From a phage, in the NCBI GenBank assembly GCA_025611195.1, contig GCA_025611195.1_4718.1: a DNA stretch of 64,000 nucleotides, one strand, 5' to 3'. The position numbers and the translations under genes are program-made. The notes beneath the pieces are model-generated. The model made no database searches. It saw only the letters and a list, made by a program, of their open reading frames with translations, and was not told the origin of the DNA. Shown here one piece after another: positions 3-46,193 of this stretch; position 1 is the stretch's first letter, and each line of letters starts with the position of its first letter.

Positions 3-39
3 CCTTCCTTCCCTAGCCATCAAGGCCGGGGAAGGAAGG
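3..39. terminator. family-B palindromic hairpin
   Basis: Stem CCTTCCTTCCC/GGGAAGGAAGG, 15-nt loop TAGCCATCAAGGCCG; reverse-orientation copy at 46159..46193. Confidence 0.45.
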
Positions 40-51
40 TTTATGGTTTAT

Positions 52-591
52 TTACTGTTTGTTCTTAGCTTCACGAATGAAAATAACGTCAGGATATTCT
101 TGAGATTCAATGAATTCAGGATTACGATAACGACGAATATGACGCATCGCCGTACAGGCAAGTTTGTAAAGATGTTCCTCCTCACGTTGTGTTAATAGCA
201 TCAGCTGTGTGTCTGGAATCACGAATGGAAGTCTTTCATTCACATATTCCCGGAGGTCATCGAGATCATCATGATGGATACCCTCTGAGAGTTTATATAA
301 CGCTTCCAGCAGTTCTAATCCGCCAAATTGGTAACTTCCTATTGTCGTCTTAAACAATGCGCCAGAACGCGTGGTGGATGCTCTATCGGCAACGTCGTAC
401 TGTTCCAACACATATCCGTAGACCATGCTACGTCGATCCAGTGTATCTGTAACGAGATTACGCCATCGTTCCAGTCTTTTGAGCGCCTTGTCGATAGAGT
501 AAACGATCATGCCATGTTCATCTAACTCTTCCGCGATACCCATCAGTTCGGTGTTGTTCGGTTTTGCTGCGCCGATAAGAAAAACACTCAT
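52..591 (-). CDS. hypothetical protein (179 aa)
   Basis: Complete ORF; start codon overlaps stop of upstream ORF (TAATG). No motif recognised. Confidence 0.55.
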   Translation of the reverse strand: MSVFLIGAAKPNNTELMGIAEELDEHGMIVYSIDKALKRLERWRNLVTDTLDRRSMVYGYVLEQYDVADRASTTRSGALFKTTIGSYQFGGLELLEALYKLSEGIHHDDLDDLREYVNERLPFVIPDTQLMLLTQREEEHLYKLACTAMRHIRRYRNPEFIESQEYPDVIFIREAKNKQ

Positions 592-1043
592 TACTCAAAC
601 TCCTTATTCCAAAACTCGATTAACGAATCAAGCTGTTCCTTACTGGTTATCTCACCTCCCTTAACAAAATGAAATCGTTCTTGAATCGCGATCTTTTCAA
701 GGATATCGGTAAGTAAATGACGATGACAGAAATTTCCTGCAGGACAATAACACCCTAACACCACAACCGGATGGGAGAATAAAGACAACCATTCCGATGT
801 ATGATCAACAAAGCTTTTACGCATGAGCGCGTAGTAGCCTGCGGTATATTCATCCTCGGTTAACGTTTTTGATTTGATTCCTGTAACAAGTTCCCATGAA
901 GGTGCGTAGAGCGGGTTACCTGTTTTCACCGTTGTGTCCAGTAGGAACGCCCGTGTGTCTGAAAGCCAACGATATTTAGCTAATTGAAGGGTGTATAAAA
1001 ACATAGCACTAACCCCCAAAGGATAAAAATAAAACCTTAACAT
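591..1043 (-). CDS. DUF4326-like protein (CxC...CH motif)
   Basis: Contains VVVLGCYCPAGNFCHRHLLTDIL, matching my recollection of the DUF4326 signature (LxCWCxPxxCHxDVL). ORF-track start 1052 is GTG; ATG at 1043 or 1004 (GGGGG RBS) more likely. Confidence 0.5.
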   Translation of the reverse strand: MLRFYFYPLGVSAMFLYTLQLAKYRWLSDTRAFLLDTTVKTGNPLYAPSWELVTGIKSKTLTEDEYTAGYYALMRKSFVDHTSEWLSLFSHPVVVLGCYCPAGNFCHRHLLTDILEKIAIQERFHFVKGGEITSKEQLDSLIEFWNKEFE

Positions 1044-1109
1044 AACCACCACCGCAACCCCATTACAGGGCTACGGTGGGGTCATACAGAGAGACGTGTT
1101 ATGTTACAA

Positions 1110-1589
1110 TCAGTCTTTCAACAGCTCGGCTGCATACGCACTGATGTTGTCGCGAATATGCTTAACCTGAGTTGTCGGGAAAGATTTCTTATACGCGGTG
1201 GTCAGACGTCCGTAAACCTGTTTCTTCTCGTTAGAGCCGAAACCAACTTCAGCGCTACGTTGAACTGTTGCAGACACAACGTCTTTGCCCAGCGGCAGGG
1301 TTACAGAAACAACGTCGACCTGTTTGTTGTCCGCCATGAACTGTGCACCAACGCGGCCAACCGCCAGACCGTGAGCCAGGCCAATGTCGGTGGTCAGTTT
1401 CTGTGCTTTTTCCAGGATTTCTTTTTCTTCCGGTGTTACCAGAGTACCCAGGAAATCACTGCCCAGCTTCTGGCTACCTGATTCGTCCAGTTTAAGACCG
1501 GCGGCGATTTTATCAGAAAGAGCCTGAACTTCCGGACGTACGTTAGAAGTGGTTTCAGTTGCTACGGTGGTTTCTACAGCTTCAGACAT
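1110..1589 (-). CDS. hypothetical protein (159 aa), predicted early gene
   Basis: ORF with GGAG 8 nt upstream of ATG; CTATATTACCT promoter-like motif about 120 nt upstream. Confidence 0.6.
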   Translation of the reverse strand: MSEAVETTVATETTSNVRPEVQALSDKIAAGLKLDESGSQKLGSDFLGTLVTPEEKEILEKAQKLTTDIGLAHGLAVGRVGAQFMADNKQVDVVSVTLPLGKDVVSATVQRSAEVGFGSNEKKQVYGRLTTAYKKSFPTTQVKHIRDNISAYAAELLKD

Positions 1590-1710
1590 GTTAATACTCC
1601 AATTAGTTTTTTCGATCGATCAAAAGGATAAAATCAGAAGATTCTTTCTTCATAGGGAAAACACAAGTCGGTTAAGGTTTACTTCTTAAACTCCTTGCGT
1701 TCTATCAGTT

Positions 1711-1721
1711 AGGTAATATAG
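1711..1721 (-). promoter_or_regulatory. early-promoter-like motif CTATATTACCT
   Basis: Plus strand reads AGGTAATATAG; minus-strand gene start at 1589. Confidence 0.45.
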
Positions 1722-1724
1722 ACC

Positions 1725-2525
1725 TCAACTTTTTTCCAATAATGCCGCAACGTTCCGCGCGAAACGAATCACCTTGTAATTGCGCGTTTGTGTAGCATCT
1801 TCTTCTCCGTCGCTATCTTCTTCGGACGGATCTTCCCACATGAAGTCTTGTTCGTCAGCTTTCTGGATATAGCGATATAGCTGCACCATACAGCGTGCGG
1901 TCGGGGAGATAGCACGAAGCTCATCTAATTCTTCATCGGTCAACAGAACGTTCGGTGAGCGCAGCGGTTCTGTTGTCGTATTACACAACAGACGAATGAG
2001 CAGATCAACACACGGAATAACAGAACCTGGTGATGCGATTTCTGGGTGTAACGTATAGCCCCAATACACGGTGTTAAAATACGTCAAAACAGCAGGTAAT
2101 GACGGATGTTCCATCGCGCGACCAATTTGTTGTCTCACGATAGATGCACGATCGCTCAACACATCGAAAGTAATCTGCTGTGGTTCCATAACCGCAAGTG
2201 AAATACCGTAAGCATCGGCCACGCCCAGGATTTCATGAAGGGTCGAGCGTTCTTCTTCGGTGGATATCGTTCCGATTGCTTTACGTCCCGCAAGGTCAAT
2301 CAGCATCGGTGAAACAGCTTCTTTAACCGCATTAAAAGAAGCCTGGTAAGCGTGTTTGTGGATATACAATGTCCACGCTAATGCGCGCTCAGCTGCGTGA
2401 AGCAGATCGACATAAGACTGTTCTTGATGGCATGGTCCATACACGCTCACAGCAAGCTTGGTGGCTTTCTCAGAAGCTTGCATAATAACATCCGGTGATT
2501 TAGGCATATCGCGTTCTTCTTGCAT
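1725..2525 (-). CDS. hypothetical protein (266 aa)
   Basis: Long ORF with acidic C-terminus; no motif recognised. Confidence 0.55.
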   Translation of the reverse strand: MQEERDMPKSPDVIMQASEKATKLAVSVYGPCHQEQSYVDLLHAAERALAWTLYIHKHAYQASFNAVKEAVSPMLIDLAGRKAIGTISTEEERSTLHEILGVADAYGISLAVMEPQQITFDVLSDRASIVRQQIGRAMEHPSLPAVLTYFNTVYWGYTLHPEIASPGSVIPCVDLLIRLLCNTTTEPLRSPNVLLTDEELDELRAISPTARCMVQLYRYIQKADEQDFMWEDPSEEDSDGEEDATQTRNYKVIRFARNVAALLEKS

Positions 2526-2628
2526 CTTTTAAATTCCTACTTAACAATAAAGTTCATATACGACGTATGTATCCGTAGAATAATGAGTTCTGGTAAGATC
2601 TTACATCAAAATGACGGCATAAAAAGTA

Positions 2629-2654
2629 CCTCCTTACCCACATGGGTAAGGAGG
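2629..2654 (-). terminator. intrinsic terminator
   Basis: 11-bp stem CCTCCTTACCC/GGGTAAGGAGG, loop ACAT, followed on minus strand by TACTTTTTATG. Confidence 0.55.
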
Positions 2655-2805
2655 CTCGTCCATCACGACGGAAGGACGTTATGTGACGCGGTGTCCATAA
2701 CGGCCCTGGTAGCAGGCATTAAAGATAACAAAAAGGATGTAAGTTGAGCTAAACCACCTAAATACGGTAACGATTACTTCCGTACACAATATAACGTAAC
2801 ATCTT

Positions 2806-3615: not shown

Positions 3616-3694
3616 AACCCCTTTATAAGCAACTGAATGAAAAAAGCGTTACCTTCCCACGTTTACGTCAAGAAGGCGACGCGTAAGCGTTATA

Positions 3695-4426: not shown

Positions 4427-4427
4427 A

Positions 4428-6895: not shown

Positions 6896-6997
6896 TCACT
6901 TTTCCTTTTTAATGTCAAAGCATCGCATTCTTGACATGCGTCAAGAAGGTATTGCGTTCAGCGAAATAAACGAGCAGGGGCATGACGCCCCATGCTC

Positions 6998-9900: not shown

Positions 9901-11344
9901 GAGCTAATTTTGCGGCTTTTGGTTTGACTTCAACATACTCGGCGAGCGTGAGTCCAGAACCGTCAGGTGCTTCGATTTCATGGATGGCGTCAGCGTTACG
10001 CATCGCTGCTTTATATTGGACGCCACTTAACTGCCCCGCATCGGCCAGATCGCTCGCGCGCACCAACACCGCATCCGATAACGACTGAATATACTCACCG
10101 TGTGTTTTTGGTAACGTTGCCGCGTCAAAGACATCAACCTTTTCTTCTTCGGTATCGTCGGTAACGACTTCGAAGAGATCGTCGGTAATGTCCTGATCTT
10201 CATCAGGTTGGAAATCCGGTTGTACTTCTACCCCGGGTACTTCACGGACATCTTCGAACGTGCGTTCTACAACGGCGTTCCATGCATCAGCGTCATCGTC
10301 TTCATCCGACCCACCAACCAACTCCGCTTCTAACTCATCGGGGTCAAGAACAGTGGCCAGATCCTCACCGTTAGGAAGCACGACGTCACGATCGTCGTAT
10401 TCCGCATCCGGGTCGTCGGTAAGAATATCTCGCTCTTGACGAAGAACCTGTTCCTCTTCTTGTTTCTGTTCTTCTTCATTCGCGCTCTGCGACCACAAAC
10501 GTGTTACCGCCATCATCCAACGACGCTGGAAGGTTTCAAGTGTCGTTTTATCGAGTTCTTCCCCTTCCTTTACAAGCCCGGTACGCCATTCCTCCAGCAA
10601 GCCGAGATTCAGCGTAAAGAAGTACACACCGTCTGTAAATACAACGTTAAGCTTATCTAGCGTGGCTCTGTCTAACGAAGCCATCGTGCTGTTCTCACGA
10701 TCGGTTCCCAACCAGCGGAAGAAGTCAAAGAACGACAGCTCCTCTGGCGTGGCGAAATTCATGAGGTTGTTGCGGGTCGGTGCCTGTTGCGTGGTGCGCA
10801 TCAACGAAATCTTCGGCAATGTTGTCGGTAAACGGAACAACAAAAAGTGTTGACGATCGCTTTGCTGTGCGATTTCGTTGGCTTTCGACCAAATTGTTTT
10901 ACGTACGTTGAACCATTCATCATACCAACGGGTGAGCGTTGGACGATAGATGTACATGTGGTTAAGATGCGCGTAGTTAGCAACGATCTGAGCGTTGATG
11001 TTTTTCTCCACCGTACTTAGATCGGTAACCAAACGAAAACGACGATGCGATGCACGATAATCCAATTTCGCTCGTGGAAGTTGGAATCGTTGATCACGTC
11101 GAGGTGCGCCTTGTTTGGTTGCGAGATCATCCGCAAACGAAATCCATAGTTGAGCATTTTCTTTACTCAGCATGTATTCGTTTTCTGGAGGACCTATCAA
11201 TGATGGATCCGTTGCGGTGTAATGATAGACAGCATAACGCGGCAGCTGCAATAGCTGCACTAAACGTAATCTTGGTGATAGTAGCTCTTGGTAGCGTCTG
11301 ACACCGAACTGTCGGTAGTAATCAAGGTATTTAAGTTTTGCCAT
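6998..11344 (-). CDS. RNA polymerase beta'-like subunit, C-terminal fragment (1448 aa)
   Basis: NNAGRWLTRQLTAM resembles the beta' bridge helix (ANSGYLTRRLVDV). Roughly 100-aa highly acidic insertion. GGAG RBS lies inside the end of the upstream ORF. Confidence 0.5.
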   Translation of the reverse strand: MAKLKYLDYYRQFGVRRYQELLSPRLRLVQLLQLPRYAVYHYTATDPSLIGPPENEYMLSKENAQLWISFADDLATKQGAPRRDQRFQLPRAKLDYRASHRRFRLVTDLSTVEKNINAQIVANYAHLNHMYIYRPTLTRWYDEWFNVRKTIWSKANEIAQQSDRQHFLLFRLPTTLPKISLMRTTQQAPTRNNLMNFATPEELSFFDFFRWLGTDRENSTMASLDRATLDKLNVVFTDGVYFFTLNLGLLEEWRTGLVKEGEELDKTTLETFQRRWMMAVTRLWSQSANEEEQKQEEEQVLRQERDILTDDPDAEYDDRDVVLPNGEDLATVLDPDELEAELVGGSDEDDDADAWNAVVERTFEDVREVPGVEVQPDFQPDEDQDITDDLFEVVTDDTEEEKVDVFDAATLPKTHGEYIQSLSDAVLVRASDLADAGQLSGVQYKAAMRNADAIHEIEAPDGSGLTLAEYVEVKPKAAKLAPAKVMPEADVIVDKSLCKSTLAVWDKHYVEHVMQKDIAAAVVAVQQAGYPVTGYKVEDVVDVMGDYQVITIKLAPVGGVPTTFPVMLPKVRKDGIYVVNGIKYRMRKQRVDKPIRKVSSSEVALSTAYGKVFVKRSERVVNNAGRWLTRQLTAMYYDKSSPLTTLKRGNVFDPAVKVPYYFAVLARNYTQIQFADWDIRLDIKTLPEFIGEDRFNEQLAEGLLTFARNTSDEFLAIDERNQLYICQSGQTPTPVGTFPDFFGINAAKMPIEAADLEFMGVRIPVGIVLSYLGGLTPLLEHLKANYRTVPRGSRMGLAADEFAVSFDDESLIFSKDDRMTTLLLGGFNEYRNYIGYARGAFDNRDIYFNVVDGAGLKVRHLRELELMERLFVDPVSRTLLQNMGEPTDFAMLLLRAVELLLDDWAPNTNDVNYQRFKTYDKFAELVYKDLVGAIRQNENSSQGNRQKISISPVSVWNQILDDSASIVIDETNPMLDIKQGEEATMTGIGGRSKTSLRRARDREYDKSDVGIVSEGTKDSGDVGISAYLAPNANIVSVYGETRPFDEKTDGISSVMSTSALAVPAVDRDDGKRLVFVGIQHNRMIAAEGYDVQPWRTGGETVIAHRVGKLFAAAAQGDGVVKKVTKTALTVQYDDPELGEEVFQLGTIIGKGPGKYYPHDLITDYKVGDRVKDQDVVVFHRLYFKRDWWNPGQVVWRAGVLSLVGILDIPETHEDSSYIFDNLAERLVTPSIKSRTLIVDAHLNIRGLVKIGDHVEPRTILATLEEPIATDLSDESQEAVEALRRMSQYNPRADVHGEVVQIDVLYRAQIEDMSETMAALVGDADKARAKRVKELKLNEATTGRINNSNVRIDGNPLGENQIAIRIFMRYDLGAGMGDKGTFAAQAKSVVSSVGHGVNKTEDGHTLDAIFSGTSIANRIIGSPEVVGTVNLGLLYATERAVDIYFNDAK

Positions 11345-11347: not shown

Positions 11348-12994
11348 TTAGGCTCCACGAGGTCCCGTTAAGTTGCGTAATAGGAACGCAACCGTATCGT
11401 AACCAATATCAATGTTGAATTTATTTTTACCACTTACCCAGAAAGCTCGCTTCTTGTGCGAGTTGGTAATTTCGTCAATAGCTTCCATGGAATAAAGAAC
11501 GTTAACCGAGACCGTATCACCATCAAAGTCCCCACCAAGTCCGGCAAGGTATGGGGCTGGGACAATCGTCGTTTCTACGAACGATGCATTAGGTAACCAG
11601 TCGGGGTATTCCCATGCGATAAATCGTTCATCCGTTATTGGTTCCCAGTTACTATCCAGTTCGGTTTTCGGTTTTGCGGCAACGGTTGTACGTGCGTAAC
11701 AGGTCAACGGAATGACGGATTGCATACCGGATACCGGATAACGTGTTACCATCGCAGCCAGGTTATTCCAGTATTTATATCCGGCGATGTACACTAATTC
11801 GGTATACGTGATAGGGTGAACATCCGCACCAGGCTTATTCAGCATCTCTGGAGGTAATTCACTCATGCCACGGAATAACCGAAACGAATCATTATTTACA
11901 TAGACGAGACAAAGATAACGTCCATTAACCATGATAGGTTCATTGCGCACACCTGGATCGCTTAAGGTGTTCAATAAACGTTCTATTCCGTCCCACGTTG
12001 TAAAGTCATCGATGGTGTCTGGATCAAGCGTGACGCGCTCACGTTCCATCGTTTCGGTATCGATAAGCTCAACTTCGGTAACATCACGGACAAATATTTC
12101 CTGCAAAATACCGGTACGTAACGCGTGTTGCGTCACGGGTAGGGCGGCTTTGCTCATCTGGTATAACCCTAACTGAACAGCTGTGCAAGAAGGCTGGTTA
12201 GGCGACCCTAGTACCTCCGTTGTGGGGTTAATTGCCGAAATAACGTTACGGGTTGAGTTCCAAACGCGACGTGAGCCGAACTTACCTTGGAAGATCCCTT
12301 TCTTACCCTGGAACATATCCAACAACAAAGCGTAGATATCGTTAAATGTTCTCTGTAAGCTCCAGCGTTGACCGTCGTAAACGGGATCGGAATAATCTTT
12401 TAATCCATCAGGGACGGTGTTAGAAATTGCAAGGAAACGACGATACAACTCCGTGATTTCTTGCTCGCTTTCATACCCGCCTTCTTTTACTTCTATTTCA
12501 CGTAAGCCCGCAGGTAAAACCAGTAAGTGACGGGTCATCGCTTTGAACATGTTCTCTTCGACAACTTTAATTCGTAGCTCTCGTTGAGCTGAACCCGTTG
12601 AAACGAACTTGATATCCGCGACGTGTTGTGCAAAGAACCCGTATCCTGTTTGTCCTGTTAACGCATCAGACGCAACGAAGTCGCGTTGTTCAGGATCCCA
12701 ACGAGCATACGCCTTTCCTGACATGATATCACCATAGAGGTGTTTTAGTCGAATGAGGCGGTCGTAAATGACAGGGTGCAGGATTTCAACTTTGCATTCA
12801 ATCACCGCAAATCGACGATCTCGATCTTCACTACCTGCACTACCAAAGATGGTGTAAGAATAGAAACCATCATCGTGGAAATTACCGGTGCTTGGGTCAC
12901 GAATGCTCATGCTCGTGATCTTGGGGAGAAAACGTAACTGCTGTTTATCGAGGTGCAAAATACTAATATTAAACGGCTCTCTGACTTTAGCCAT
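11348..12994 (-). CDS. RNA polymerase beta'-like subunit, N-terminal fragment with DFDGD catalytic motif
   Basis: C-terminal GGDFDGDTVSVNVLYSMEA matches beta' NADFDGDQMAVHVPLTLEA. Start placed at ATG 12994 (GAGGAG RBS) not ORF-track 13036. Confidence 0.6.
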   Translation of the reverse strand: MAKVREPFNISILHLDKQQLRFLPKITSMSIRDPSTGNFHDDGFYSYTIFGSAGSEDRDRRFAVIECKVEILHPVIYDRLIRLKHLYGDIMSGKAYARWDPEQRDFVASDALTGQTGYGFFAQHVADIKFVSTGSAQRELRIKVVEENMFKAMTRHLLVLPAGLREIEVKEGGYESEQEITELYRRFLAISNTVPDGLKDYSDPVYDGQRWSLQRTFNDIYALLLDMFQGKKGIFQGKFGSRRVWNSTRNVISAINPTTEVLGSPNQPSCTAVQLGLYQMSKAALPVTQHALRTGILQEIFVRDVTEVELIDTETMERERVTLDPDTIDDFTTWDGIERLLNTLSDPGVRNEPIMVNGRYLCLVYVNNDSFRLFRGMSELPPEMLNKPGADVHPITYTELVYIAGYKYWNNLAAMVTRYPVSGMQSVIPLTCYARTTVAAKPKTELDSNWEPITDERFIAWEYPDWLPNASFVETTIVPAPYLAGLGGDFDGDTVSVNVLYSMEAIDEITNSHKKRAFWVSGKNKFNIDIGYDTVAFLLRNLTGPRGA

Positions 12995-13239
12995 GGAGAC
13001 ACTCCTCTTTACCACCACCGGCTGCGGCGGTATCATCTGAACACACGAGAGACGTAATGGGTGACGCCATCACCCATCGCTTCCTTGCTTGAGGCGAGGA
13101 AGTTATTAGGTTACGTACCTGCCTGATTTTATCAGGTGGGCGATGTGTGAAGTTACGCTTCAACATTATCAATGCCGAAGGTAAGCTTCGTGCATCACGT
13201 TCCAACGTAACATGGGAACGTATCGAACTGGAGGTATAC

Positions 13240-16200
13240 ATGGTAGATAAAACCCGTGTTGAGGGTGATGATAATTGGGATAACTGGGATGATGACTTCT
13301 CCCTGGATCTCGATTTTAACGAACCCAAAGACGATCGTAAACCGATAACACGCTTTGCGGTAGGAGCGGTTAAAGGTGCTGCTGAGGATCTTACTTCCTA
13401 CGAAAGAATGAAGGAGATCGCCAGAAACGCATTGCCTAAGGGCTATAGCGACGGTATGGATCTTATTGATTCCGCCGTCGGATCCACGAAGGAACTATAC
13501 AATGAAGCCGTTCGTGACGTTCTTCCTAAGGTCCAAAGCTCAAAACGGTTAGCTGCACAACTGACCAAGAAATACCGTGCAAGCATGCCCGATTTCTCGA
13601 AGAAAATTCTTGAGCAATGGGAGCAAGAAGCCAAGGAAGAAGACGAACGTAAACAAGCTGAAGAAACTCTTCGTCAACGCATGGCGAGCGCGGGGGACGA
13701 TGAGATCGCCCGCAAGGTTGCCGAGGCATTAGGCGAATCAGCAAACCAAAGCGCAGATCAGTTCGCTGAACAGCAAGCGAAAGAAAGTATCCGTGACGAT
13801 ATCGCTGACAAACGGTACGCTGTAACCAACAAACAAATGAGTGCGATGCAAGAAGGCGTCGCCAAGATGGTTGGTTTCAACAATGAATTCGCTGCACGCT
13901 ACATGCGTAAAAGCCTGGAACTGAAATATCGTTCCTTAGCGATTCAACGTGCAAGTTTCGACCAGCATAAAAAGTTAGCCGAAGTCTATATCGGTTTATT
14001 ACAAAACATCCAGAAGAATACGGCTTTACCTGATGCGGCTAAAGCAAAAATGTCGGAAGAATTCCGTCGTAGTGCGTACCAACGTTTCTTTGGTAATGCG
14101 TTAGATGCGATGAGTTCTTTCGAGAACCGTTTCTTTGCTGATGTTAAGAAGAACCTTGCCACCAACGCATTAGGCGCTTTAAAAGGCGTCGTGTCTGGCG
14201 CAAACGATGCGTTATACGGTTTAAACGAAGCACGTGACTCGATGTCCATGATGGACGGGATGGGGTCAGAAGGCGATATTAAGGAAATGCAAGGAAAGAT
14301 GTTGGGTCAGTTCATTGGCTCAACTGTCGCACCATGGATGGCTAATAAAGGTAGGATGGCGTTACGCGATTTAGCAAAACGTCACCCCAATGCTAAATTC
14401 GCTAGCGCGTTAAAAGCCGTGGATCAAGGTGGTGAGGCTGCCGCATACACAACGCGTAATCTCGGTAAACTGCTCCAGGAAGATATTCGTAAGAACGAAT
14501 TCAATCTTAGCGATCCGTTTTACAAGCAATTGTTACGCGGTGCGGGGCGTTGGGCGTTCAACATGGACAGCGGACGTAACTTCCGTGTGATGAACGACAC
14601 CGCTGAAACATTGGCGGAACAAACGTCTTTCGACGGTTTAACCTACCGCAGTATCAATGAAGTTATTCCTGGCTTTCTTGCACGCATTCTGAAAAGCAGT
14701 GAGGGTATCCGCACCGGAAACAGCGATCCAGACTACGAGGTCTATGACGGCATCAGCGGGCAATTCGTGTCTCAGCGTACGCGTGAACAAAGCGTCAACG
14801 ACACACTGTTTAACAAACGTACATTTGGTTATTACGCCAGCCGTTTCAACGAGGTTATCTCGGTCATCGATCCCGATAAACAATTATCGGAAAAAGCCAG
14901 AAAGGCGCTGGCTAAGCAGTTGGCACGAGATAGCGACGCGAACATCGCATTCGACCCGGCTCGTTTTACGGATGAAAGCAACTTCGATCGTAGTATCGAT
15001 CGTGACGCTATTAAGGAACTTTCCGCGTACTTTCGTGACCGTTATGGTATTCGTGACGATATCAACGATAAAGGCGAACGTCATCAGGTCATTGGAAACC
15101 GCGGACAATATTACACGGAACGTAACCGAGCTGATCTTCGCTACGGTAATCTGAAATCTTTACAACCGGATATCCAGCGTAACCTTAACCTACTGAAACG
15201 TACTGGTGACGTCCAATATCTGGAACGTATCGGTATTGTGACGAGAAATAGCGACGGAAGCTACTCGGTTAATCACGATCGTTATTTCTCTGAAATTGAT
15301 CAATACATCGACCGACCAGAGTACGCTGACCGTGGCGATGTCAATACGCGATTAACCTCTCAGGAAACAAGAGCGCTGGCGCTGGGTTACCGTGACGCAA
15401 AACCATCAACAGGCGACGTCCAAAATGCAGGTCTGCCGAACATCGAACGTAAGGTTGCTGGAACAGTAACCATTGATGAAAACATCGGCTACGATAAATG
15501 GTGGAACGACACGGGTGTTATCACCACATCGCTTGAAGAACAGAATCGAGCATGGCAAGAACTCTATCTCGAAGCGCTGTCTGAAGCATCCGAACAACGT
15601 GTTGAAATGCTTACGTTACTGAAAGCCATTTCTGAGAAAGACTGGTCTAATAACGTTTCACTGGATGGCGAAGATGTACCTGAAGGTACGGCACCTATTT
15701 CCTTTATCGATCGCGCCAAACAAAAACTCGGTGCGCGTAACCTCTTTAAAGGCGGCCGTAATCTCCTCTGGAAAGGAATTAAAAATACCGCACGATTGGG
15801 TGTTAAAGGCGCACGTTGGGGTGCAGAACGTACATTAGGTAGTTTGGTAAATTCCGGCCGACGCATTATCAACTTCAACCGATTCGTGTTCGGTGCGTTA
15901 TCCAAAGTCGATCAGGTTCCGTTTGACATTTACGTTAAAGGGGAATCCCAACCACGCATACTGGCTGCCAAACTTCGTCAGGGGTTATACTTCGACGAAG
16001 CGACAGGAAAAGCCGTAAAACGAATGAAGGATATCAAAGGCCCACTCGTTGATGCAGATGGAAACATCGTAATCAGCAACGAGGATATCGAGAAAGGGTT
16101 GGTCACTCGCGCTGGTCGTGCCTTTGAGAATTCAGGACTTAAAGCGTGGGCGCATGAAGGTCTTAATGGAATAACGACGGTCTTAAGTCTGCCGCGGATG

Positions 16201-19200
16201 TTAAAACGCGGTGCGGTTGAGATCTACAAACAGCTTGACAAAACGCCCGACGTTTACGTCAAGGGAGAATCAACGCCTCGTCTATTATCCATGGTGTTAG
16301 CAGCGGGTGGGTATTTCCGTCGCTCTGATGGACAAACCATCAAAAATCTTGAAGACATCGATGGCGATGTTGTTGATGCACAAGGTAACGTCGTACTTAC
16401 GCTTGCCGACATGCAGAAAGGGCTTGTCGATAAATACGGTAAAGCGATTCGTCGCTTAAAAGAAAAGCTCATCAACTTCGGTGTAAAAGCTTTTACATTA
16501 CCGTTAACGCTGCTACGTAAGACAAAGGACATCCTTAAAACCCTTCCAGGTAAAACCGTTAACGGCCTACGACGGATGGGATTAAATTTCCAATCACCTG
16601 ACGCATTATTGGTGGGAACAACGTCGAGCATGGTAGATCGCCTCGACGCTATTTACCAGCTTCTCGACCAACGTATGCCGGGTGGTGACAGGGATTATCG
16701 CGATTGGAATGGGGATGGTGTTCGAGAAGGATCGTTGGAAGACCTGAAACGTAAACGTGCAGCCAAGGAAAACGGTAAGGATGACACCGGCAAAGATTCC
16801 AATAAAGGAGAAGAAAAGGAGAAGAAACGAGGATTACTCGGAAGCCTTTTCGATATGCTTGGCGATACCGCATTAGGTAAACGACTCATGGCGAGTCCGC
16901 TTGGAAAAATTCTAGGTGGTCTTGGGGCGGTGTTAAGCGGCGGAGCATCGTTAACCGGATTGTTGGGCAAGGGTCTCATTAGTGGAACCGGCGCGCTAGT
17001 CAAGGGAGGACTAAGTGCGGCAGGATGGTTAGGCCGTGGTGCGTTAATGGCGGGCGGGGCCGCATTGAACGCTGTTGGTGGTTTATCGGGATTAGGCGCA
17101 TTCCTTATATCACCTGTTGGGCTTGCTATTGCTGGCGGCGCATTGGCTGCTTATGCAGGATGGAAGATCTATCAACATTTCGCCGAGAAGCCCGACCCGA
17201 TGCAGAAGCTCCGTCTTATTGCATACGGTGCAAAAGGGGACGATAAAGACTTCAATAAGAAGCTGCTTGCGACAGAAACATACCTCACCGACCATGTGGT
17301 TATGACCGGGGATACCATCGGATTCGATCCGAAAGCGGATTCTGAAAAGATTCTCGAAATCTGGGAATTGTCCCTGGAAGATTCCGACCGAATGAACGAA
17401 TGGAAACGCTGGTATCTGCATCGTTTTATTCCTGTTTTCGCTCGTGCGTACAAACTCTGGAAAGAGCATATGCCGGACGAGAAGAAATACATGGAAATGG
17501 ATAAATATCCGAACGGTGAGAACAAGGTGAAATGGTCGGAAGCGTTTATCTGGCCTTCTGATAGTCCTGACGGCCCGTATTACGTCGAAGCTAACCCGTT
17601 GGGTTCTTCTGGTGCGACGCGTTATATTGCTGGTCAAGACGTCAAAACCTTGATGCTGAAACAACTCGAAGCCATCAAGAAAGAGTACCAGAATCAGATT
17701 AAGCAATACACTCATGATGAGGCTATTGCTGATTGGTCACGGATGTCTGACACACAACGTAAATCCGTTGCACCTAACGCATTACGTGGTCAGAAAGCGT
17801 CGTTACGTTTTAACGATAAACGTTACAACAGCGCTGGCGCTAAAGGACGACAGAAGCTTGACGCAACCGCCGTTATTGAAAGCGTAGACCGCCGTGGTAG
17901 GAAATGGGTTGCTGGCGGGTACATCGATGAACTCACCAGTCTCCGTGTTCGCGCGTACGGTATCAAGGTTCCGTTGTTAAGTCAGATAAAAGTGCTGATG
18001 GAACTCGAAGACGCTGTGGAACCTGGTGTAGTCGCTGAAGGTAAAGGGGTTAAATACGGTGGCGATCTTGTCGCGCTCTACAAGAAATTCGCGACGAAGT
18101 TCGGAAGAGACGTTAACAGCAAGCAGGATCAGGATATCTGGTTTGCTTGGATGAATAACCGTTTCCTGCCTGTCTTTTTAACCTATTACCAACAAGTTAG
18201 CGACATGGGCGGTCAAGGTCTTCTGTCCGACGTGGTACAGAACCTGAAAGACAGCCAACGTTGGGAAATCGGTGAAGCACTTGTCGCAACGCAATACCGT
18301 GATGAGAAAGGTGCACTACAGCCTGTATGGACCTGGAATAGTTGTGGTTTCTCCGGTACTGAAGCTAACACCACCAGCAGTTCAACAAAGAGCCAACTCG
18401 ATCTGTTAAAAGAATATGCGGATAAAGAGAAGGTTCGTGAGAAGAACGCGGAAGCATCGCAAGAGGATACCGAGAAATTATCGAAGATCCAAGAGCTGAT
18501 GATGAAGCAGGCTGGGTACGAGAAGAAAGACGGTGTTTGGCAGAAGAAATCTCGCATTACCGGTGGGATGAGTAACGCCGAAGCGAATTACAACCCCAAT
18601 GGGAATAGGGTAGGTGCAAGCAGCTTTACTGCTTCGGCTACTTCCAGTGCTGGGTTGGGGTCAACCGGCGATCTTACCGGATTGCCTAACATGGGCTTAC
18701 AGAAACCTGCAACGGGACCAGGTCCTGAAGCTGGGCGACGTACGCTTGTTAAATCTGCTGTGAAACACGGTATTACCGATCCAATGGAAATGGCGATGTT
18801 CCTTGCGAACATCGAACATGAATCGGGGAACTACAGTCACGTACGTGAGGGGAACTATAAGACACCAGAGCGTCTTAAACAGGTCTTCCCTTACAAATTC
18901 CGTGATGTGCAGGATGCCGCACAAACGATCAGCATGGGACCGGAAGCGGTATTCGAACGTGTGTATGGTAATCGTAAAGATCTAGGAAACACACAGAAAG
19001 GGGACGGGGCGAAGTATTTAGGACGTGGCTTCATTCAGGTTACCGGTAAAGCTAACTACGCTCGTCTGTCCAAGACCTTGAATAAGGATCTTGTCAGCGA
19101 TCCGACCTACCTGGAAACGCCGGAAGGTGCGGCGGAAGGTAGTGTCGCATGGTGGCTCAACCGAGGTAACGTGTTACGCGATCCCGCAAAACGGGGTGAC

Positions 19201-22112: not shown

Positions 22113-22144
22113 CCCTCTCCCTTCCCTTACGGGTTGGGAGAGGG
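22113..22144. terminator. family-A palindromic hairpin at convergent junction
   Basis: Stem CCCTCTCCC/GGGAGAGGG, loop TTCCCTTACGGGTT. Confidence 0.5.
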
Positions 22145-27564: not shown

Positions 27565-27885
27565 TTATCTTCCACCGCGCAATGACTTTACGTTGCGTGC
27601 GATAAAGGGTGCAACGTAATCACGGAAATTATGGATCCATCCTTTAATGGGTTGATTGTCTAGTAAGCACTCTCGAACCGAGAACGTACTTACTTCTAAT
27701 ACGCCGAACTGCAGTCGCCAATAACGATTGATTTCGGCTTGGGCGTGTTCTAAGGTCATGTACTCAGGAACACGGGCCAGCAGATCGTGTTTAAATTGCT
27801 CGGCAATCGCTGGTTGATGCGACGCAATTGTCTGTGCGATAACATCAACCAGTTCGTGCGCGTGCTTGATAGCAGGTGCGGTCAT
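27565..27885 (-). CDS. hypothetical protein (106 aa)
   Basis: ORF in operon. Confidence 0.45.
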   Translation of the reverse strand: MTAPAIKHAHELVDVIAQTIASHQPAIAEQFKHDLLARVPEYMTLEHAQAEINRYWRLQFGVLEVSTFSVRECLLDNQPIKGWIHNFRDYVAPFIARNVKSLRGGR

Positions 27886-34974: not shown

Positions 34975-35006
34975 CCCTCCTCCTTCCCTTACGGGTTGGA
35001 GGAGGG
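34975..35006. terminator. family-A palindromic hairpin
   Basis: Stem CCCTCCTCC/GGAGGAGGG, loop TTCCCTTACGGGTT identical to 22122..22135. Confidence 0.5.
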
Positions 35007-35035
35007 TTATGCCGTCAAGCAAAAAAAAAATGATA

Positions 35036-36780: not shown

Positions 36781-36840
36781 TTAAAAACAACAAAAGAAAA
36801 AACGATATAAAGCAAGGTCCTCTGATATCAGAGGACCTTG
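36781..36840 (-). terminator. intrinsic terminator
   Basis: 28-bp perfect palindrome CAAGGTCCTCTGATATCAGAGGACCTTG (36813..36840) followed on minus strand by a long T-rich tract. Confidence 0.65.
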
Positions 36841-38699: not shown

Positions 38700-38704
38700 A
38701 AACA

Positions 38705-39118: not shown

Positions 39119-39122
39119 AAAC

Positions 39123-39154
39123 CATCCTCCCAACCCGTCAGGGAAGGGAGGATG
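39123..39154. terminator. family-A palindromic hairpin (reverse orientation)
   Basis: Stem CATCCTCCC/GGGAGGATG, loop AACCCGTCAGGGAA. Confidence 0.5.
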
Positions 39155-39171
39155 AAATATGCCGTTATATG

Positions 39172-39801: not shown

Positions 39802-39817
39802 TCCCCGCTCCAATTAA

Positions 39818-40999: not shown

Positions 41000-41031
41000 A
41001 ACGTTTTCCTTCTTGGGTTTTGTACATGTTG

Positions 41032-42458: not shown

Positions 42459-42476
42459 CAGAAATCCTTATTTATC

Positions 42477-44933
42477 TTAAATAATCGTGACGTGTTCGTT
42501 ATACGTTTCAGGGAGGATGATGTTCGTTTTATCAAGAACCATACACTCAGCTTTACGGAATGATGCATGGTTGATAACATAGTGGCTGATGAACCACACT
42601 TGGCTTACGCGATGACCATCGACCAAACGACGAACAAAATCCATGGCATTAGATTGGTGCTGCGGATCAAATGTTGATGCGAATTCATCTAACATCAACG
42701 GATAATCCGTAAACCCCTTGTAATGCATCATCGCGATGATAAACGCGATATTGATAATTTCCTTTTGTCCCTTACTCCCATAAACAATATCTTTTCGCGG
42801 CGTCGGATACTTCTCAGTTAAAAGCGGAAAACGATAGTTCAATCCTTGCGCGTCGATAGCACACGGAAGTATCTGAAGTTGGTATTCCCAAATACTCGAA
42901 ATGATACCGTTCATGTATTCAACGAACGCGTTGATTGGACCAGCGATTGTTTCGGCAATCAATCCGTTGGATGGACTCAACTCATCCAGAACAAGTTGTG
43001 CGTAACTGAGCTGTTCTTCCACCTCTTTTTGCGTTGTTTCCAACTGAGCCAGAAGCTGCTGGTCGGTTTTAGCTTCCTGTAACTGCTGTTCGACATGACT
43101 TATCCGGCGAACCGTATCAGACATCGCAGCACGTAGTGATTTCGTGTAAAGATGCTGTAGATACTCCAACCACAGTTGCGTTAACGCTTTATCGCTACTA
43201 TCAGAACGTACCTGATCTTCCATAATCGCCGTAATGGTTTCCAATCTACCTTCCGTAGCTGTGATGGCTTGTGTTAACCGTTCAACGGTTGTTAACAACT
43301 CTGTCCTGTTCTTATAAAGCAGTTCTCGACGTTGCTGTAATGGTTCAACATCAACCGCTTGTACACGTTCGAGCATATCCTGAAGATGTTTACGTTCTTG
43401 CTCGGCTTGTGTATAACGCGCGAGTTTCTCGAATGCAAGCAACCAGTCGTTAATGATGCCAATACTGCGGAATCCTAAACCGTTTTTGCGGCCTTCTTCC
43501 AGCAGATTATCCCACATGGGTTTAATAGCGTAATAATCTTTCGTCCAACGCGTTAACTGACGATGCTGTTCCATCCAAAGCGTATAACGCTGCACCTTCT
43601 CATTAAGTTCGGCTAACGATTTCTCCTGTTCTTCAACCCAAGCGCGACCCTTCTGAATACGTTGTTCAATGCTCGCTTTGCTGGTCTTTTCTGTCTCACC
43701 AACATGAAAGCGATAATTGCATTTTGGACAGCTGGTCTGGGGTTGATGGTTAAGATGGTCAAGATGCGCTTCCAAATCGGCTAACGCGTGTTTCGCGTTA
43801 CGCAAACGCATTCGTGCCGCCTCTTCCTCCTTGATGTAAGCTTCAGCATCGTAAACATGATAGGTGTTGTCGGTATCAATCCATTCTTGCAATAGTTCCG
43901 TTAACGGAGCCTGAACTTGCGTGAGCTGTTGTAAACAAACCGCGGCGTCCAGATTCATCGTTAAAAGCTCACCTGGATGATCATGCTGAAGTTGTTCGTC
44001 CAAACAGGCAAGGCGGGCTTTAATCTGATCGATATCGCCTTCTCCAGACTGTTTCAACTGGTCAAGGATATTATCGATACCCAACAGCTCGTCAACCTGA
44101 CTTTCGAGTTTCGCATTCGCATTCGCGAGTTGCTCTCTTAGTTCAGCCAGATTCCGCTGTTCTTGTTGCGATGTTCCTCCTTGGTAACGAACAACCGCAC
44201 GAAGAAGCTCGCGATTAAAATGATGGGCACGTTGTGCGGATTCCAGAAGCTGTCGTTGATCAACATCGCTATCGAATAACGGCAATCCCATCATCGCTTC
44301 GAGCGCCGAGCGTTGCTGCTTTAACTCTGCTTCCAATCCCTGGTGGTCGGTTCCAGTGTATTTCGCTTCAATTCGCTGTGATGTTTCAACCAACTTATTC
44401 AATGTGTGCTCATTCACCGCTTTCAGTGAACGTACCTGTTGCTTAACAACCTGAAACAGCTCAAGCGCATAATCGACGTTAACCGGGCATATCTGCGTTA
44501 ATCGTTCGCGACGTTTCATCGGTCCCATTTCGGTGAACTGGTAAGCTGTTTCGTAACCTAACAACAAACGAATGGTGTCGTCATTAAGTTCGAAATGTTC
44601 TTCGATCAGTTTCCACTGGGCTGGTTGTGTGCCACCACCATTCAAGTTCTCACTGTCGTTAACGTAGAACTCGTGCTTAAACCCTTTTTCTAAACGACTG
44701 ATAAGACGGTATTGCTTATTACGGTGTTCGCAGCGGTACTCGTAATACCCGTCTTTATCAAAATCAGCGCGCTCGGGAACGGTTGGATACAGCAAAGGCA
44801 GTAGACTGCTCTTACCCGAACCATTACTACCTAGAATGAGTTGTACGGGATTATCTGGCCGGATGACCAGCTCCCGAATCATCCCGGTATCAAAACGATT
44901 GAATCCACGTAAGTGGAGATAGGTGCATCGCAT
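42477..44933 (-). CDS. Rad50/SbcC-like recombination ATPase
   Basis: Walker A LILGSNGSGKSSLL, central CPKCNYRF zinc-hook-like CxxC in coiled-coil region, C-terminal LMLDEFASTFD Walker B. Start at ATG 44933 (MRCTYLHLRGF) with AGAAGGA RBS. Confidence 0.7.
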   Translation of the reverse strand: MRCTYLHLRGFNRFDTGMIRELVIRPDNPVQLILGSNGSGKSSLLPLLYPTVPERADFDKDGYYEYRCEHRNKQYRLISRLEKGFKHEFYVNDSENLNGGGTQPAQWKLIEEHFELNDDTIRLLLGYETAYQFTEMGPMKRRERLTQICPVNVDYALELFQVVKQQVRSLKAVNEHTLNKLVETSQRIEAKYTGTDHQGLEAELKQQRSALEAMMGLPLFDSDVDQRQLLESAQRAHHFNRELLRAVVRYQGGTSQQEQRNLAELREQLANANAKLESQVDELLGIDNILDQLKQSGEGDIDQIKARLACLDEQLQHDHPGELLTMNLDAAVCLQQLTQVQAPLTELLQEWIDTDNTYHVYDAEAYIKEEEAARMRLRNAKHALADLEAHLDHLNHQPQTSCPKCNYRFHVGETEKTSKASIEQRIQKGRAWVEEQEKSLAELNEKVQRYTLWMEQHRQLTRWTKDYYAIKPMWDNLLEEGRKNGLGFRSIGIINDWLLAFEKLARYTQAEQERKHLQDMLERVQAVDVEPLQQRRELLYKNRTELLTTVERLTQAITATEGRLETITAIMEDQVRSDSSDKALTQLWLEYLQHLYTKSLRAAMSDTVRRISHVEQQLQEAKTDQQLLAQLETTQKEVEEQLSYAQLVLDELSPSNGLIAETIAGPINAFVEYMNGIISSIWEYQLQILPCAIDAQGLNYRFPLLTEKYPTPRKDIVYGSKGQKEIINIAFIIAMMHYKGFTDYPLMLDEFASTFDPQHQSNAMDFVRRLVDGHRVSQVWFISHYVINHASFRKAECMVLDKTNIILPETYNEHVTII

Positions 44934-44958
44934 GCTATGATAATCCTTCTTCGATACC

Positions 44959-44978
44959 TTCTGAACCATGGTTCAGAA
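44959..44978. promoter_or_regulatory. 20-bp perfect palindrome TTCTGAACCATGGTTCAGAA (operator-like)
   Basis: Perfect dyad in divergent region between Rad50-like gene and 45047 gene, 26 nt upstream of ATG 44933. Confidence 0.4.
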
Positions 44979-45046
44979 TGCGAAGCTGAAGCCATACTTC
45001 AGCGTTATTTTCTATATCGTTATTTAAATCAGTAGGAGATTACAGC

Positions 45047-46135
45047 ATGAGCGATCTGGCAACAGACAACCGCACAAAAGGGAGTCAGTTAGCTCCAGAC
45101 AGCAACGTAAGCGTTTTCCGTATCTTTGCCTTGGGTACCGTTGCTGCCGACTTTTCCAATAAAAGTCTGGAGGAAGATCCGAACCAGGCGCTGGAGGTCT
45201 TTCTTGACGAGATGATGTCAGGTGCTGACGGGAAAGTTGAAGCGGCGGGAAGCGTGAAAGAAGTTAGTGCAACAGACGCTCAAGGGAACAGTTATACCGC
45301 AAAAGCGGCAACAACAACCAGCGTACAGTGTTACTGGTTACCCTTTGGTAGTAACCGGATGACAGCACCTAACTTGAGGAAAGGTCAGCGTGTGGTGGTC
45401 TGGCGTACTGCCGATGAAGAACAACTCTACTGGCAGCCCAAAGGAGGGGATAGTGAGCTGATGACCATGGAATCGGTTATCCTCACCGTCAGTGCACGTC
45501 CTAGCGCTAAGAAGGACCGTAAATCGATTTCAACGGAAGACTGCTATTACCTAATGGTTGATACCTTTCTTAAGAAAGCGGTTATCGGTACAAGCGCACA
45601 GCTTGGTGAAGTTACCCAAGTCTACATGGAACTTAATCTGGACGAGGGTTACTTACAGGTTGCGGACAGCGTCCATCAAAACCTACTATTGCTCCATTTT
45701 GTCGAGCATATGCTGCGATACCAAAACCAGGACGACAGCATTATCGACGTAACAAAAAAGAACATCACATTCCAATGCGAGGATACGCTCAAAGCAATCG
45801 CTAAGAACGATATCCGAATGAAAGCAAAAAATATTTATACGGAATGTGAGAACTTTGAACGTACCAGCAAAACAGAAAGCGTTACGAGTCAGAATGTTTC
45901 TTTGAAATGCGATCGCTACACCGCGCAAGTATCAGGACAAACCATATTCAAATGTCCGAATACGGTATTCACCGGAGCCGTGAGTTTCACTGGTGAAGAC
46001 GGAAACACGATGACATTGAACGGTAACTTCATACACGTCGCGGGATCTTGGCGTTCACCAAGCGGAACAAACGTGTACACTCACGACCACGGTGGTGTTA
46101 AATCCGGTAGTAGTAGAACCGACCCGTTTCAATAA
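45047..46135 (+). CDS. hypothetical protein (362 aa), possible beta-helical spike-like protein
   Basis: GGAG RBS. C-terminal half has alternating beta-like repeats ending in YTHDHGGV, reminiscent of HxH apex motifs of puncturing spikes; weak. Confidence 0.45.
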   Translation: MSDLATDNRTKGSQLAPDSNVSVFRIFALGTVAADFSNKSLEEDPNQALEVFLDEMMSGADGKVEAAGSVKEVSATDAQGNSYTAKAATTTSVQCYWLPFGSNRMTAPNLRKGQRVVVWRTADEEQLYWQPKGGDSELMTMESVILTVSARPSAKKDRKSISTEDCYYLMVDTFLKKAVIGTSAQLGEVTQVYMELNLDEGYLQVADSVHQNLLLLHFVEHMLRYQNQDDSIIDVTKKNITFQCEDTLKAIAKNDIRMKAKNIYTECENFERTSKTESVTSQNVSLKCDRYTAQVSGQTIFKCPNTVFTGAVSFTGEDGNTMTLNGNFIHVAGSWRSPSGTNVYTHDHGGVKSGSSRTDPFQ

Positions 46136-46158
46136 AACAAAAAAGAAATATAACATAG

Positions 46159-46193
46159 CCTCCTTCCCCGGCCTTGGTGGCTAGGGAAGGAGG
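46159..46193. terminator. family-B palindromic hairpin
   Basis: Stem CCTCCTTCCC/GGGAAGGAGG, loop CGGCCTTGGTGGCTA (reverse complement of the loop at 14..28, one mismatch). Confidence 0.5.

Follow-up and report, generated by a model that had tools for sequence, protein, structure and literature searches.

The matching hairpins at positions 3-39 (site 1) and 46159-46193 (site 2) of the window, the whole 64,000-nt stretch of phage DNA analysed here, are probably paralogous copies of a bidirectional, intrinsic-type transcription terminator of Goslar-like jumbo phages, the interior of one of them having been flipped in place. The support for a terminator module comes from homology and position. The two sites look opposite because the 15-base loop of one of them was flipped inside its stem; nothing in the findings suggests a new kind of system.

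Genomic setting of the two hairpins

The window is colinear with the genome of Escherichia phage Goslar (MK327938) at 91-96% identity. Goslar is a phiKZ-like, nucleus-forming jumbo phage with several RNA polymerase beta/beta'-like genes and 77 homologues in common with phiKZ, and through its relatedness to Goslar the window belongs with the phiKZ-related genomes that encode a split multisubunit RNA polymerase. Both hairpins were found where the earlier note had placed them, and its claim that they mark the 3' ends of gene blocks was borne out, with each situated between convergent genes:

3..39, no strand assigned: family B hairpin, site 1, interior in the state 'F', as in Goslar (orthologue at Goslar 200229-200265)
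40..54, plus strand: T-rich tail of site 1, TTTATGGTTTATTTA, with TTATG; 52-54 is the TAA stop of the minus-strand ORF 52-591
52..591, minus strand: orthologue of Goslar gp219, a hypothetical gene, converging on site 1
45047..46135, plus strand: orthologue of Goslar gp013, a baseplate assembly protein gene (phrog_3216, E 2.7e-61)
46136..46158, minus strand: left flank of site 2, which is the minus-strand tail CTATGTTATATTTCTTTTTTGTTTTATTG (TATG, then a T-run) for transcripts of the minus-strand gene block
46159..46193, no strand assigned: family B hairpin, site 2, 15-nt interior in the state 'R', inverted relative to Goslar (11186-11220)
46194..46211, plus strand: T-rich tail of site 2, ATTATAGTTTATTTATTA; 46209-46211 is the stop of the minus-strand ORF 46209-46646
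46209..46646, minus strand: orthologue of Goslar gp014, a hypothetical gene, converging on site 2

Site 1 is 12 nt from the stop of ORF 52-591 and, in Goslar, 28 nt 3' of the stop of the plus-strand tail-tube gene gp218; site 2 begins 23 nt past the stop of ORF 45047-46135 and ends 15 nt short of that of ORF 46209-46646. Upstream of site 1 are the tail sheath and tail tube genes, and upstream of site 2 a baseplate gene. Based on Pfam and PHROGs, products near the two sites were a tail tube, baseplate or DUF488-like protein or had no match (including the gp219 orthologue at 52..591, which matched neither database), and no recombinase or transposase was found among the neighbouring genes. Gene duplication was rejected as the source of the two copies because the flanking proteins are unrelated, upstream as well as downstream.

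Sequence and fold of family B

Site 1 is composed of the arms CCTTCCTTCCC (3-13) and GGGAAGGAAGG (29-39) around the interior TAGCCATCAAGGCCG (14-28), and site 2 of the arms CCTCCTTCCC (46159-46168) and GGGAAGGAGG (46184-46193) around CGGCCTTGGTGGCTA (46169-46183). The reverse complement of the site 2 loop, TAGCCACCAAGGCCG, has a single mismatch (T/C) to the loop of site 1, as the earlier note had claimed, and the stems are nearly identical, differing by one extra T. A second copy of the 15-mer with at most one mismatch would be expected 0.0055 times in 64 kb on both strands, and chance is therefore excluded as the origin of the match. The likeness extends to ~75 nt when the flanks are included, and these are co-oriented at both sites, with an A-rich run on the left and (T/A)TTAT(G/A)GTTTATTTA on the right.

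The predicted fold of site 1 has an outer stem (3-13/29-39), a U.G pair (14/28), an A/C mismatch (15/27), an inner stem (16-18/24-26) and the apical loop ATCAA (19-23). Site 2 has an outer stem (46159-46168/46184-46193), an inner stem of a G.U pair plus 3 bp (46170-46173/46179-46182) and an apical loop at 46174-46178. For family B as a whole, the 15-nt interior comprises a U.G pair, a 1x1 A/C mismatch, a 3-bp GCC/GGC stem and a 5-nt apical loop. Folded in context as RNA of either strand, the two sites reached -28.7 to -33.8 kcal/mol (z -4.3 to -6.5), and folding of the hairpin itself, a third copy (site 3, below) included, gave -26 to -27 kcal/mol, as expected of a canonical intrinsic terminator stem. 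A scan of the whole window against Rfam 15 at gathering thresholds gave no match.

Conservation within the family is high: all copies have the core CCTTCCC/GGGAAGG unchanged, none has lost the internal mismatch or the inner stem, and 13 of the 15 interior positions do not vary across all copies and genomes. Seven of 15 pairs change on both sides (93% of cells paired), and the family-B-like Goslar copy at 146,607 shows an inner-stem G-C to C-G change. This covariation fits an RNA hairpin and a DNA-level palindrome alike and does not separate the two. The invariance of the interior is not an obvious need of a plain terminator and speaks against the terminator reading.

A class of related hairpins across the genome

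The earlier note had proposed a small repertoire of reused, terminator-like modules with CCTCC/GGAGG stems, and the wider genome agrees: the class numbers ~34 hairpins per genome, with CCTCC../..GGAGG arms, stems of 9-12 bp and flanking CATAA and TTATG, and it matches the terminator motif that was mapped by experiment in phages phiKZ and 201phi2-1. Nine hairpins in the window combine an all-pyrimidine 5' arm with an all-purine 3' arm, compared to a mean of 0.12 in 100 dinucleotide shuffles. All nine lie wholly outside ORFs, as do 28 of the 34 Goslar hairpins of the class, in genomes that are 92% ORF. Besides sites 1 and 2, the window contains the following members, none with an assigned strand:

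2629..2654: related hairpin, CCTCCTTACCCA-CA-TGGGTAAGGAGG, followed on the minus strand by TTTTTATGCCGT
22113..22144: family A hairpin between convergent genes, with the 14-nt interior TTCCCTTACGGGTT
34975..35006: family A hairpin between convergent genes, followed by TTATGCCGT
39123..39154: family A hairpin between convergent genes
51558..51589: family A hairpin
53385..53416: related pyrimidine-arm/purine-arm hairpin; the Goslar orthologue (17603-17637) bears a terminator annotation
63526..63557: family A hairpin between convergent genes, followed by AATATGTTGTTATGC; a terminator is annotated at its orthologue in Goslar, 27746-27777

Family A has a 4-nt apical loop and a conserved 2x2 AA/AA (or UU/UU) internal loop. 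Family B is present in 3-4 copies per genome; the genome-wide search for the loops that the earlier note had recommended recovered a third exact-loop copy in Goslar at ~84,366-84,396, outside the window (site 3), and the family-B-like copy mentioned above. The outcome that the note had named as refuting, an absence of further copies, is thereby contradicted. Two other readings of the recurring strings were discarded. Mimicry of Shine-Dalgarno or anti-Shine-Dalgarno sequences by the arms (ACCUCCUU / AAGGAGG) was rejected, as start codons are too distant, or absent at the convergent sites, and we treat the resemblance as a by-product of pyrimidine/purine arms. Mini-ORFs beginning at the hairpin-adjacent ATG (MLLC.., MPS..) were dropped in favour of a nucleotide motif, because the phiKZ string TTATKYYGT covers the recurring ATGCTGT and ATGCCGT.

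Comparison with known terminators

In bacteria, the canonical bidirectional Rho-independent terminator between convergent genes is a G+C-rich hairpin placed between an A-rich and a T-rich run. The present hairpins resemble it in lying between such runs and in matching an ARNold prediction in Goslar, where site 2 (11186-11220) is annotated as 'putative transcriptional terminator, -13.81'; site 1 was not called. They differ in having a UUAU(G)-type tail instead of a clean U-run, in the conservation of sequence as well as structure among copies, and in the polymerase, which is presumably a phage enzyme inside the phage nucleus.

A closer likeness is found among jumbo phages. ONT-cappable-seq mapped a hairpin followed by TTAT(K)YYGT at the transcript 3' ends of phiKZ and 201phi2-1 (PMC10914365, PMC11512511). 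In phiKZ, 61 mapped termination sites share BCCYCCCCHWWDGGGRRGGBYTTATKYYGT, and six of the motif sites are bidirectional and situated between convergent genes (PMC10914365); in 201phi2-1 the same motif (motif A) occurs at 59 of 132 termination sites (PMC11512511). On inspecting the phiKZ sequence itself, we found the same layout, ..CATAAG-CCCTCCC-nnnn-GGGAGGG-CTTTATG... Like this motif, the Goslar-type hairpins have pyrimidines in the 5' arm and purines in the 3' arm (the family B core CCTTCCC/GGGAAGG fits CCYYCCC/GGGRRGG); they further share, in part, a TTAT(G) tail with CATAA mirrored upstream, and also intergenic placement after stop codons with probable bidirectional use between convergent genes, the setting of both sites 1 and 2, and dozens of copies per genome in the same group of phages with split multisubunit RNA polymerases.

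There are also differences. The Goslar-type stems are longer (9-12 bp); where the phiKZ motif has a 4-nt HWWD loop, family B has a 15-nt two-tier interior, and family A keeps the 4-nt apical loop but adds the 2x2 internal loop. Both families are variants of the phiKZ motif and not exact matches to it. The phiKZ 3' ends were mapped, whereas the Goslar-type class is known here by homology and position, and a literature search found no RNA data, 3'-end maps included, for Goslar-type phages. The comparison would extend the phiKZ-type terminator motif to the E. coli-infecting Goslar group of nucleus-forming phages and define a longer, two-tier variant of it, an aid to annotating the transcription units of a model jumbo phage.

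According to this reading, RNA from either strand would form the same two-tier hairpin, with a 10-11 bp stem (pyrimidine 5' arm, purine 3' arm), a one-base mismatch, an inner stem of 3-4 bp and a 5-nt loop, followed by a U-rich UUAU(G)-type tail. The design would be that of the conserved phiKZ-type terminator motif, with transcription by the split multisubunit RNA polymerases of the phage.

The tails follow the phiKZ consensus in part. Aligned with BYTTATKYYGT, the plus-strand tail of site 1 (TTTATGGTT) contains TTATG but not YYGT, and that of site 2 (ATTATAGTT) contains TTAT with A at the K position; the minus-strand tail of site 2 was compared as CTATGTTAT. T-richness is interrupted, with five T in the first 8 nt of the plus-strand tail at site 1 and four at site 2, where ATTATAGT is a poor U-tract that departs from TTATK at K, and on the minus strand the T-runs begin ~10 nt past the stem. 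The poor plus-strand tail at site 2 counts against the terminator reading, as does the two-tier interior of family B in place of a 4-nt loop. Across the class, TTATKYYGT occurs in 7 of 68 hairpin tails versus 0.03 expected, and 43 of 68 tails, counting both strands, have TATG no more than 16 nt 3' of the hairpin, versus 2.4 expected (~18-fold).

This enrichment on both strands is one argument for a composite element: a hairpin that terminates the transcript arriving from upstream, with the neighbouring TATG as the core of a phiKZ-type late promoter that drives the following unit or antisense RNA. The late promoters of the phiKZ non-virion polymerase require TATG, with transcription starting at its G (PMC4666361), so the flanking motif could have a second role. 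At site 3, which lies between co-directional genes, the hairpin is followed by CTATATG and the RBS and ATG of the next gene are ~20-27 nt further on. Yet TATG is necessary but not sufficient and is frequent genome-wide (PMC4666361), TTAT(K) is already described as part of the terminator motif (PMC10914365), and at the convergent sites 1 and 2 a promoter would make nothing but antisense RNA. The upstream CATAA is also complementary to the downstream TTATG, and the pair may therefore simply extend the stem. Overall, we regard a combined terminator-promoter as unlikely.

The hairpins could instead act after transcription, in 3'-end protection, RNase processing or binding of a phage RNA-binding protein, and not as a stop signal for the polymerase. 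Their stability, the retention of the internal mismatch and inner stem in every copy and the weak canonical U-tract at site 2 would suit such a role. We consider it quite unlikely, however: the homologous phiKZ motif coincides with mapped termination sites classed as intrinsic (PMC10914365), eight chosen 201phi2-1 terminators were validated in vivo by stopping host polymerase in a reporter (PMC11512511), and the free flipping of the interior described below speaks against strand-specific sequence recognition in RNA.

In-place flipping of the interior

The earlier note had interpreted the pair as one element in opposite orientations, and this part of its account did not stand. Stems and flanks are co-oriented, the site 1 and site 2 loops of Goslar point the same way, and in the lineage of the window the inversion is limited to the 15-nt interior of site 2. 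Opposite loop orientation would not be a functional design but the product of inversion in place, which is polymorphic among relatives. Surveying the three family B sites in about 10 Goslar-like genomes, we saw every site in both states: F in five and R in two at site 1, F in five and R in six at site 2, and F in five and R in one at site 3. On a tree of the flanks, F and R were intermixed among genomes 2-3.5% apart.

Flipping is not confined to family B. Seven of 47 orthologous family A pairs differ in orientation. The family A hairpin at 22113..22144 has the interior TTCCCTTACGGGTT, inverted with respect to AACCCGTGAGGGAA at Goslar 224384, and in the related hairpin at 2629..2654 the central CA is the reverse complement of TG in Goslar. 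Flips thus affect hairpins whose arms differ and whose interiors measure as little as 2-14 nt, which points to a generic inverted-repeat mechanism and not a site-specific one. Likely causes would be a switch of strands at the hairpin, or else recombination or conversion between its two perfect inverted arms, for which a further copy aligned in reverse may have been the template. Predicted fold energies were -27.3 kcal/mol for F and -26.4 kcal/mol for R, which makes the flip energetically neutral in the folding model (~1 kcal/mol or less). Since hairpin and energy are left almost unchanged, both states may persist and interconvert repeatedly among close relatives, and the recurrence of flips indicates a function independent of loop orientation.

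Small hairpin-loop inversions and quasipalindrome template-switch mutations have been described in chloroplast non-coding DNA and in bacterial mutagenesis. The phage flips are like them in involving a short segment between perfect inverted arms that occurs in both orientations in close relatives, recurrently and out of step with phylogeny. They differ in affecting a phage terminator family, where ectopic conversion among near-identical copies may contribute; we suspect this because several sites show recurrent swaps of GTAA and ATCA tetraloops. Interior flipping of the motif is not described in the phiKZ or 201phi2-1 studies (PMC10914365, PMC11512511), and a literature search on loop inversions in bacterial or phage terminators found nothing specific. 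Repeated in-place flipping of terminator interiors among genomes a few percent apart is a modest microevolutionary finding, with the practical consequence that flips can be mistaken for clustered substitutions or for an element present in two orientations.

A faster flip-flop might keep both orientations within one phage population, with orientation or the 13 invariant bases of the interior being of consequence; we think this distinctly improbable. If true, the orientation or these bases might adjust termination in one direction or the other or be recognised by a phage factor, the terminators would be a heritable but reversible regulatory polymorphism, and assembly breaks at the hairpins would be a symptom of mixed orientations.

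A DNA-level element, be it a cruciform, a palindrome that binds protein or a programmed switch inverted by a recombinase, would account for an inverted repeat with its interior in both orientations, and three independent assemblies start or stop at such hairpins. But no recombinase gene was found beside either site, flips occur with different arms and with interiors down to 2-14 nt, the hairpins are located strictly at gene ends, and the invariant T.G pair and A/C mismatch can be understood in RNA but not in a duplex binding site, so we judge this very improbable.

Enterobacterial REP/BIME elements are repetitive extragenic palindromes, present in hundreds of copies and mobilised by RAYT transposases. 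An origin as a small mobile palindromic repeat (REP- or MITE-like) inserted in different orientations is extremely improbable: several near-identical copies per genome lie beside unrelated genes, sites 1 and 2 are alike well into their flanks, and imperfect palindromes repeated at gene 3' ends in both orientations do recall REP/BIME, but in every Goslar-like genome sampled the family B hairpins sit at three positions that are orthologous throughout, no empty sites or target duplications were seen among those examined, the flip is confined to the interior between co-oriented flanks, family B has few copies per genome and no transposase, and the direct similarity is to mapped terminators.

In a scan of metagenomes, ~7 matches were set aside as unrelated chance matches, which is the number we estimate when 19 fixed bases are looked for in an assumed ~10^12 bases. 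Flips may break assemblies, and three independent assemblies begin or end at such hairpins: at position 1 of the window, at the end of UViG_3300011560 and at the ends of the Goslar record, which was linearised inside the orthologue of the hairpin at 34975..35006.

Two hairpins at convergent gene ends

The window was colinear with Goslar (Escherichia phage vB_EcoM_Goslar, MK327938, 237 kb), a phiKZ-related jumbo phage, at 91-96% identity, corresponding to Goslar 200227-237301 and then continuing into 1-28220. The sequence confirmed the pair of hairpins described in the earlier note, which belong to a family with 15-nt interiors (family B) and whose interiors, but for one mismatch, are each other's reverse complement (chance expectation for a second 15-mer copy at the same stringency, 0.0055 per 64 kb):

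Site 1, 3-39: CCTTCCTTCCC-TAGCCATCAAGGCCG-GGGAAGGAAGG (arm-interior-arm), between the gp218 tail tube gene (+ strand, PF23806) and gp219 (- strand)
Site 2, 46159-46193: CCTCCTTCCC-CGGCCTTGGTGGCTA-GGGAAGGAGG (arm-interior-arm), between the gp013 baseplate protein gene (+ strand, phrog_3216) and gp014 (- strand)

Because a + strand gene is followed by a - strand gene at each site, both are convergent junctions; the genes beside site 1 are unrelated to those beside site 2. The Goslar record carries a putative terminator at site 2 (ARNold prediction, -13.81) and no terminator annotation at site 1.

RNA folding of both strands indicated that the 15-nt 'loop' is itself structured, with a predicted outer stem of 10-11 bp, then one mismatch, an inner stem of 3-4 bp and an apical loop of 5 nt on either strand. 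Folding energies of the bare hairpins were -26 to -27 kcal/mol, and z-scores of the sites folded in context were -4.3 to -6.5. Variation within family B interiors was confined to apical positions 6-7 (GT, AT, AC or GC; only transitions), the remaining 13 positions being identical in all copies, and termination alone does not account for this invariant interior. Covariation (7 of 15 pairs changed on both sides; 93% of cells paired) supports the family B helix, a measure that does not distinguish an RNA hairpin from a DNA palindrome.

Recurrent flipping of hairpin interiors

The earlier note had regarded sites 1 and 2 as the same element in opposite orientations. This did not hold for the whole element: stems and flanks are co-oriented, the left flank having an A-rich run and the right flank (T/A)TTAT(G/A)GTTTATTTA. 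The + strand of Goslar has TAGCCGTCAAGGCCG as the interior of both sites, and in the window the inversion is limited to the interior of site 2. The reading as one element in opposite orientations thus gives way to an in-situ loop flip at site 2. Across about ten Goslar-like genomes, obtained from scans of viral and metagenome collections, in-place flipping was recurrent.

Orientation of family B interiors (F, as in Goslar; R, flipped)
Site 1, F: Goslar, UViG_3300045988, window, ERZ1026852.3, ERZ1026903.5
Site 1, R: ERZ1643250.25; UViG_3300011560 (contig end, to be treated with caution)
Site 2, F: Goslar, UViG_3300011560, ERZ1026852.3, ERZ1026903.5, ERZ1026864
Site 2, R: window, QZLZ01002480, UViG_3300045988, OGZS01000006, ERZ1643250.25, ERZ1027596
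Site 3 (third family B locus, outside the window): F in 5 genomes; R in QZLZ01017809

A tree built from the site 2 flanks showed F and R genomes intermixed at distances of 2-3.5%; explaining this takes no fewer than two to three events, or recombination. Flipping was also found in family A, a related class with a 14-nt interior (CCCTCCTCC-AA-CCC-GTAA-GGG-AA-GGAGGAGGG; window sites 22113, 34975, 39123, 51558 and 63526), where 7 of 47 orthologous pairs had flipped, the pair of window 22113 and Goslar 224384 among them. At window 2629, a 2-nt centre is the reverse complement of Goslar's.

Based on folding, a flip alters RNA stability by ~1 kcal/mol or less. The two perfect inverted arms would allow flips to originate through template switching or recombination between them, and near neutrality would let the flips persist. 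Family A apical loops were hypervariable (for example, ATCA at window 63526 versus GTAA at Goslar 27746, and window 34975 versus Goslar 237246), and different genomes showed the same two-base GTAA/ATCA swap at several orthologous sites. These recurrent swaps suggest ectopic conversion between hairpin copies, which might also contribute to the flips. Family A orientation was skewed in Goslar (13 sites with AA..GNRA..AA on the + strand, 2 in the TT form), despite interiors flipping between genomes; selection, replication direction or shared ancestry could be responsible.

Membership in the phiKZ-type terminator class

Nine hairpins in the window have a 5' arm made up entirely of pyrimidines and a 3' arm made up entirely of purines, compared with 0.12 in dinucleotide shuffles, and all nine lie outside ORFs. 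ORFs make up 92% of the Goslar genome, and 28 of its ~34 such hairpins overlap none of them. Exact family B loops occur there three times, at 11,186, 200,229 and ~84,366, the last (site 3) between co-directional genes; a family-B-like interior at 146,607 (TA-CCC-ATAAC-GGG-CG) has an inner-stem G-C replaced by C-G. Families A and B share a two-tier plan (outer stem, internal loop, 3-bp G+C inner stem, 4-5 nt apical loop), and the class has common flanks, with (G/A)CATAA preceding the hairpin and (W)TTATG(C) following it. Counting both strands, 43 of 68 tails had TATG no more than 16 nt 3' of the hairpin (2.4 expected), and 7 of 68 had TTATKYYGT (0.03 expected).

Of the 133 termination sites that ONT-cappable-seq mapped in phiKZ, 61 share 5'-BCCYCCCCHWWDGGGRRGGBYTTATKYYGT-3', and six are regions where convergent genes meet and termination is bidirectional (PMC10914365). 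Of 132 termination sites in 201phi2-1, 59 bear this motif and 15 are bidirectional; eight terminators from that phage functioned in a reporter assay (PMC11512511). Run over the initial 50 kb of phiKZ, with the arm relaxed from 7 to 6 bp, our hairpin script recovered 13 hairpins laid out identically, one of them being cagcataag-CCCTCCC-ATTGC-GGGAGGG-cattatg. Given the same motif and layout in these phages, the window hairpins are members of this known class, although in a longer, two-tier version. The motif match, the gene-end position and the ARNold call at site 2 thus support the earlier reading of the pair as terminator modules, which at convergent junctions would stop phage polymerases in both directions.

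Hairpins at co-directional junctions may have a dual terminator-promoter role. The phiKZ non-virion polymerase has TATG as its late-promoter core (PMC4666361), and the hairpin-adjacent TATG matches it, so some hairpin sites may double as promoters.

Additional observations

Upstream CATAA mirrors downstream TTATG genome-wide (for example, window 35007-35015, 39158-39166 and 63558-63572), and hairpin flanks repeatedly contain the strings TATGCCGT and ATGCTGTTATGC. Hairpins of the form aagg-CCTCCAACCC-nnnn-GGGAAGGAGG-cc, which share the AA/AA internal loop of family A, are also present in three IMG/VR contigs (30-49 kb) that are not among the Goslar-like genomes found here. A perfect 28-nt palindrome at window 36813-36840 (CAAGGTCCTCTGATATCAGAGGACCTTG), without the pyrimidine/purine arm design, is positionally equivalent to the annotated Goslar terminator 1841-1862.

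Two larger differences separate the window from Goslar. Goslar 211754-213798 (2,045 bp), an annotated group I intron with an HNH/NUMOD homing-endonuclease gene adjoining an RNA polymerase beta-like gene, is absent at window 11527-11529; the window counterpart of that polymerase gene is a single uninterrupted ORF (11348-13036) in which Rfam matched no intron. Window 48842-49789 (~950 nt), where the - strand has a 277-aa ORF (48849-49682), matches just ~70 nt of Goslar (13868-13939); here the two phages differ by an insertion or a replacement.

Finally, hairpins of this kind mark the start or end of three independent sequences: the window starts 2 nt before site 1, the UViG_3300011560 contig end falls inside site 1, and the Goslar record is linearised within a family A hairpin (window 34975-35030), its ends overlapping by 55 nt, with an A16 run. 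Trouble in assembling flipping or very stable hairpins could explain this, as could coincidence.
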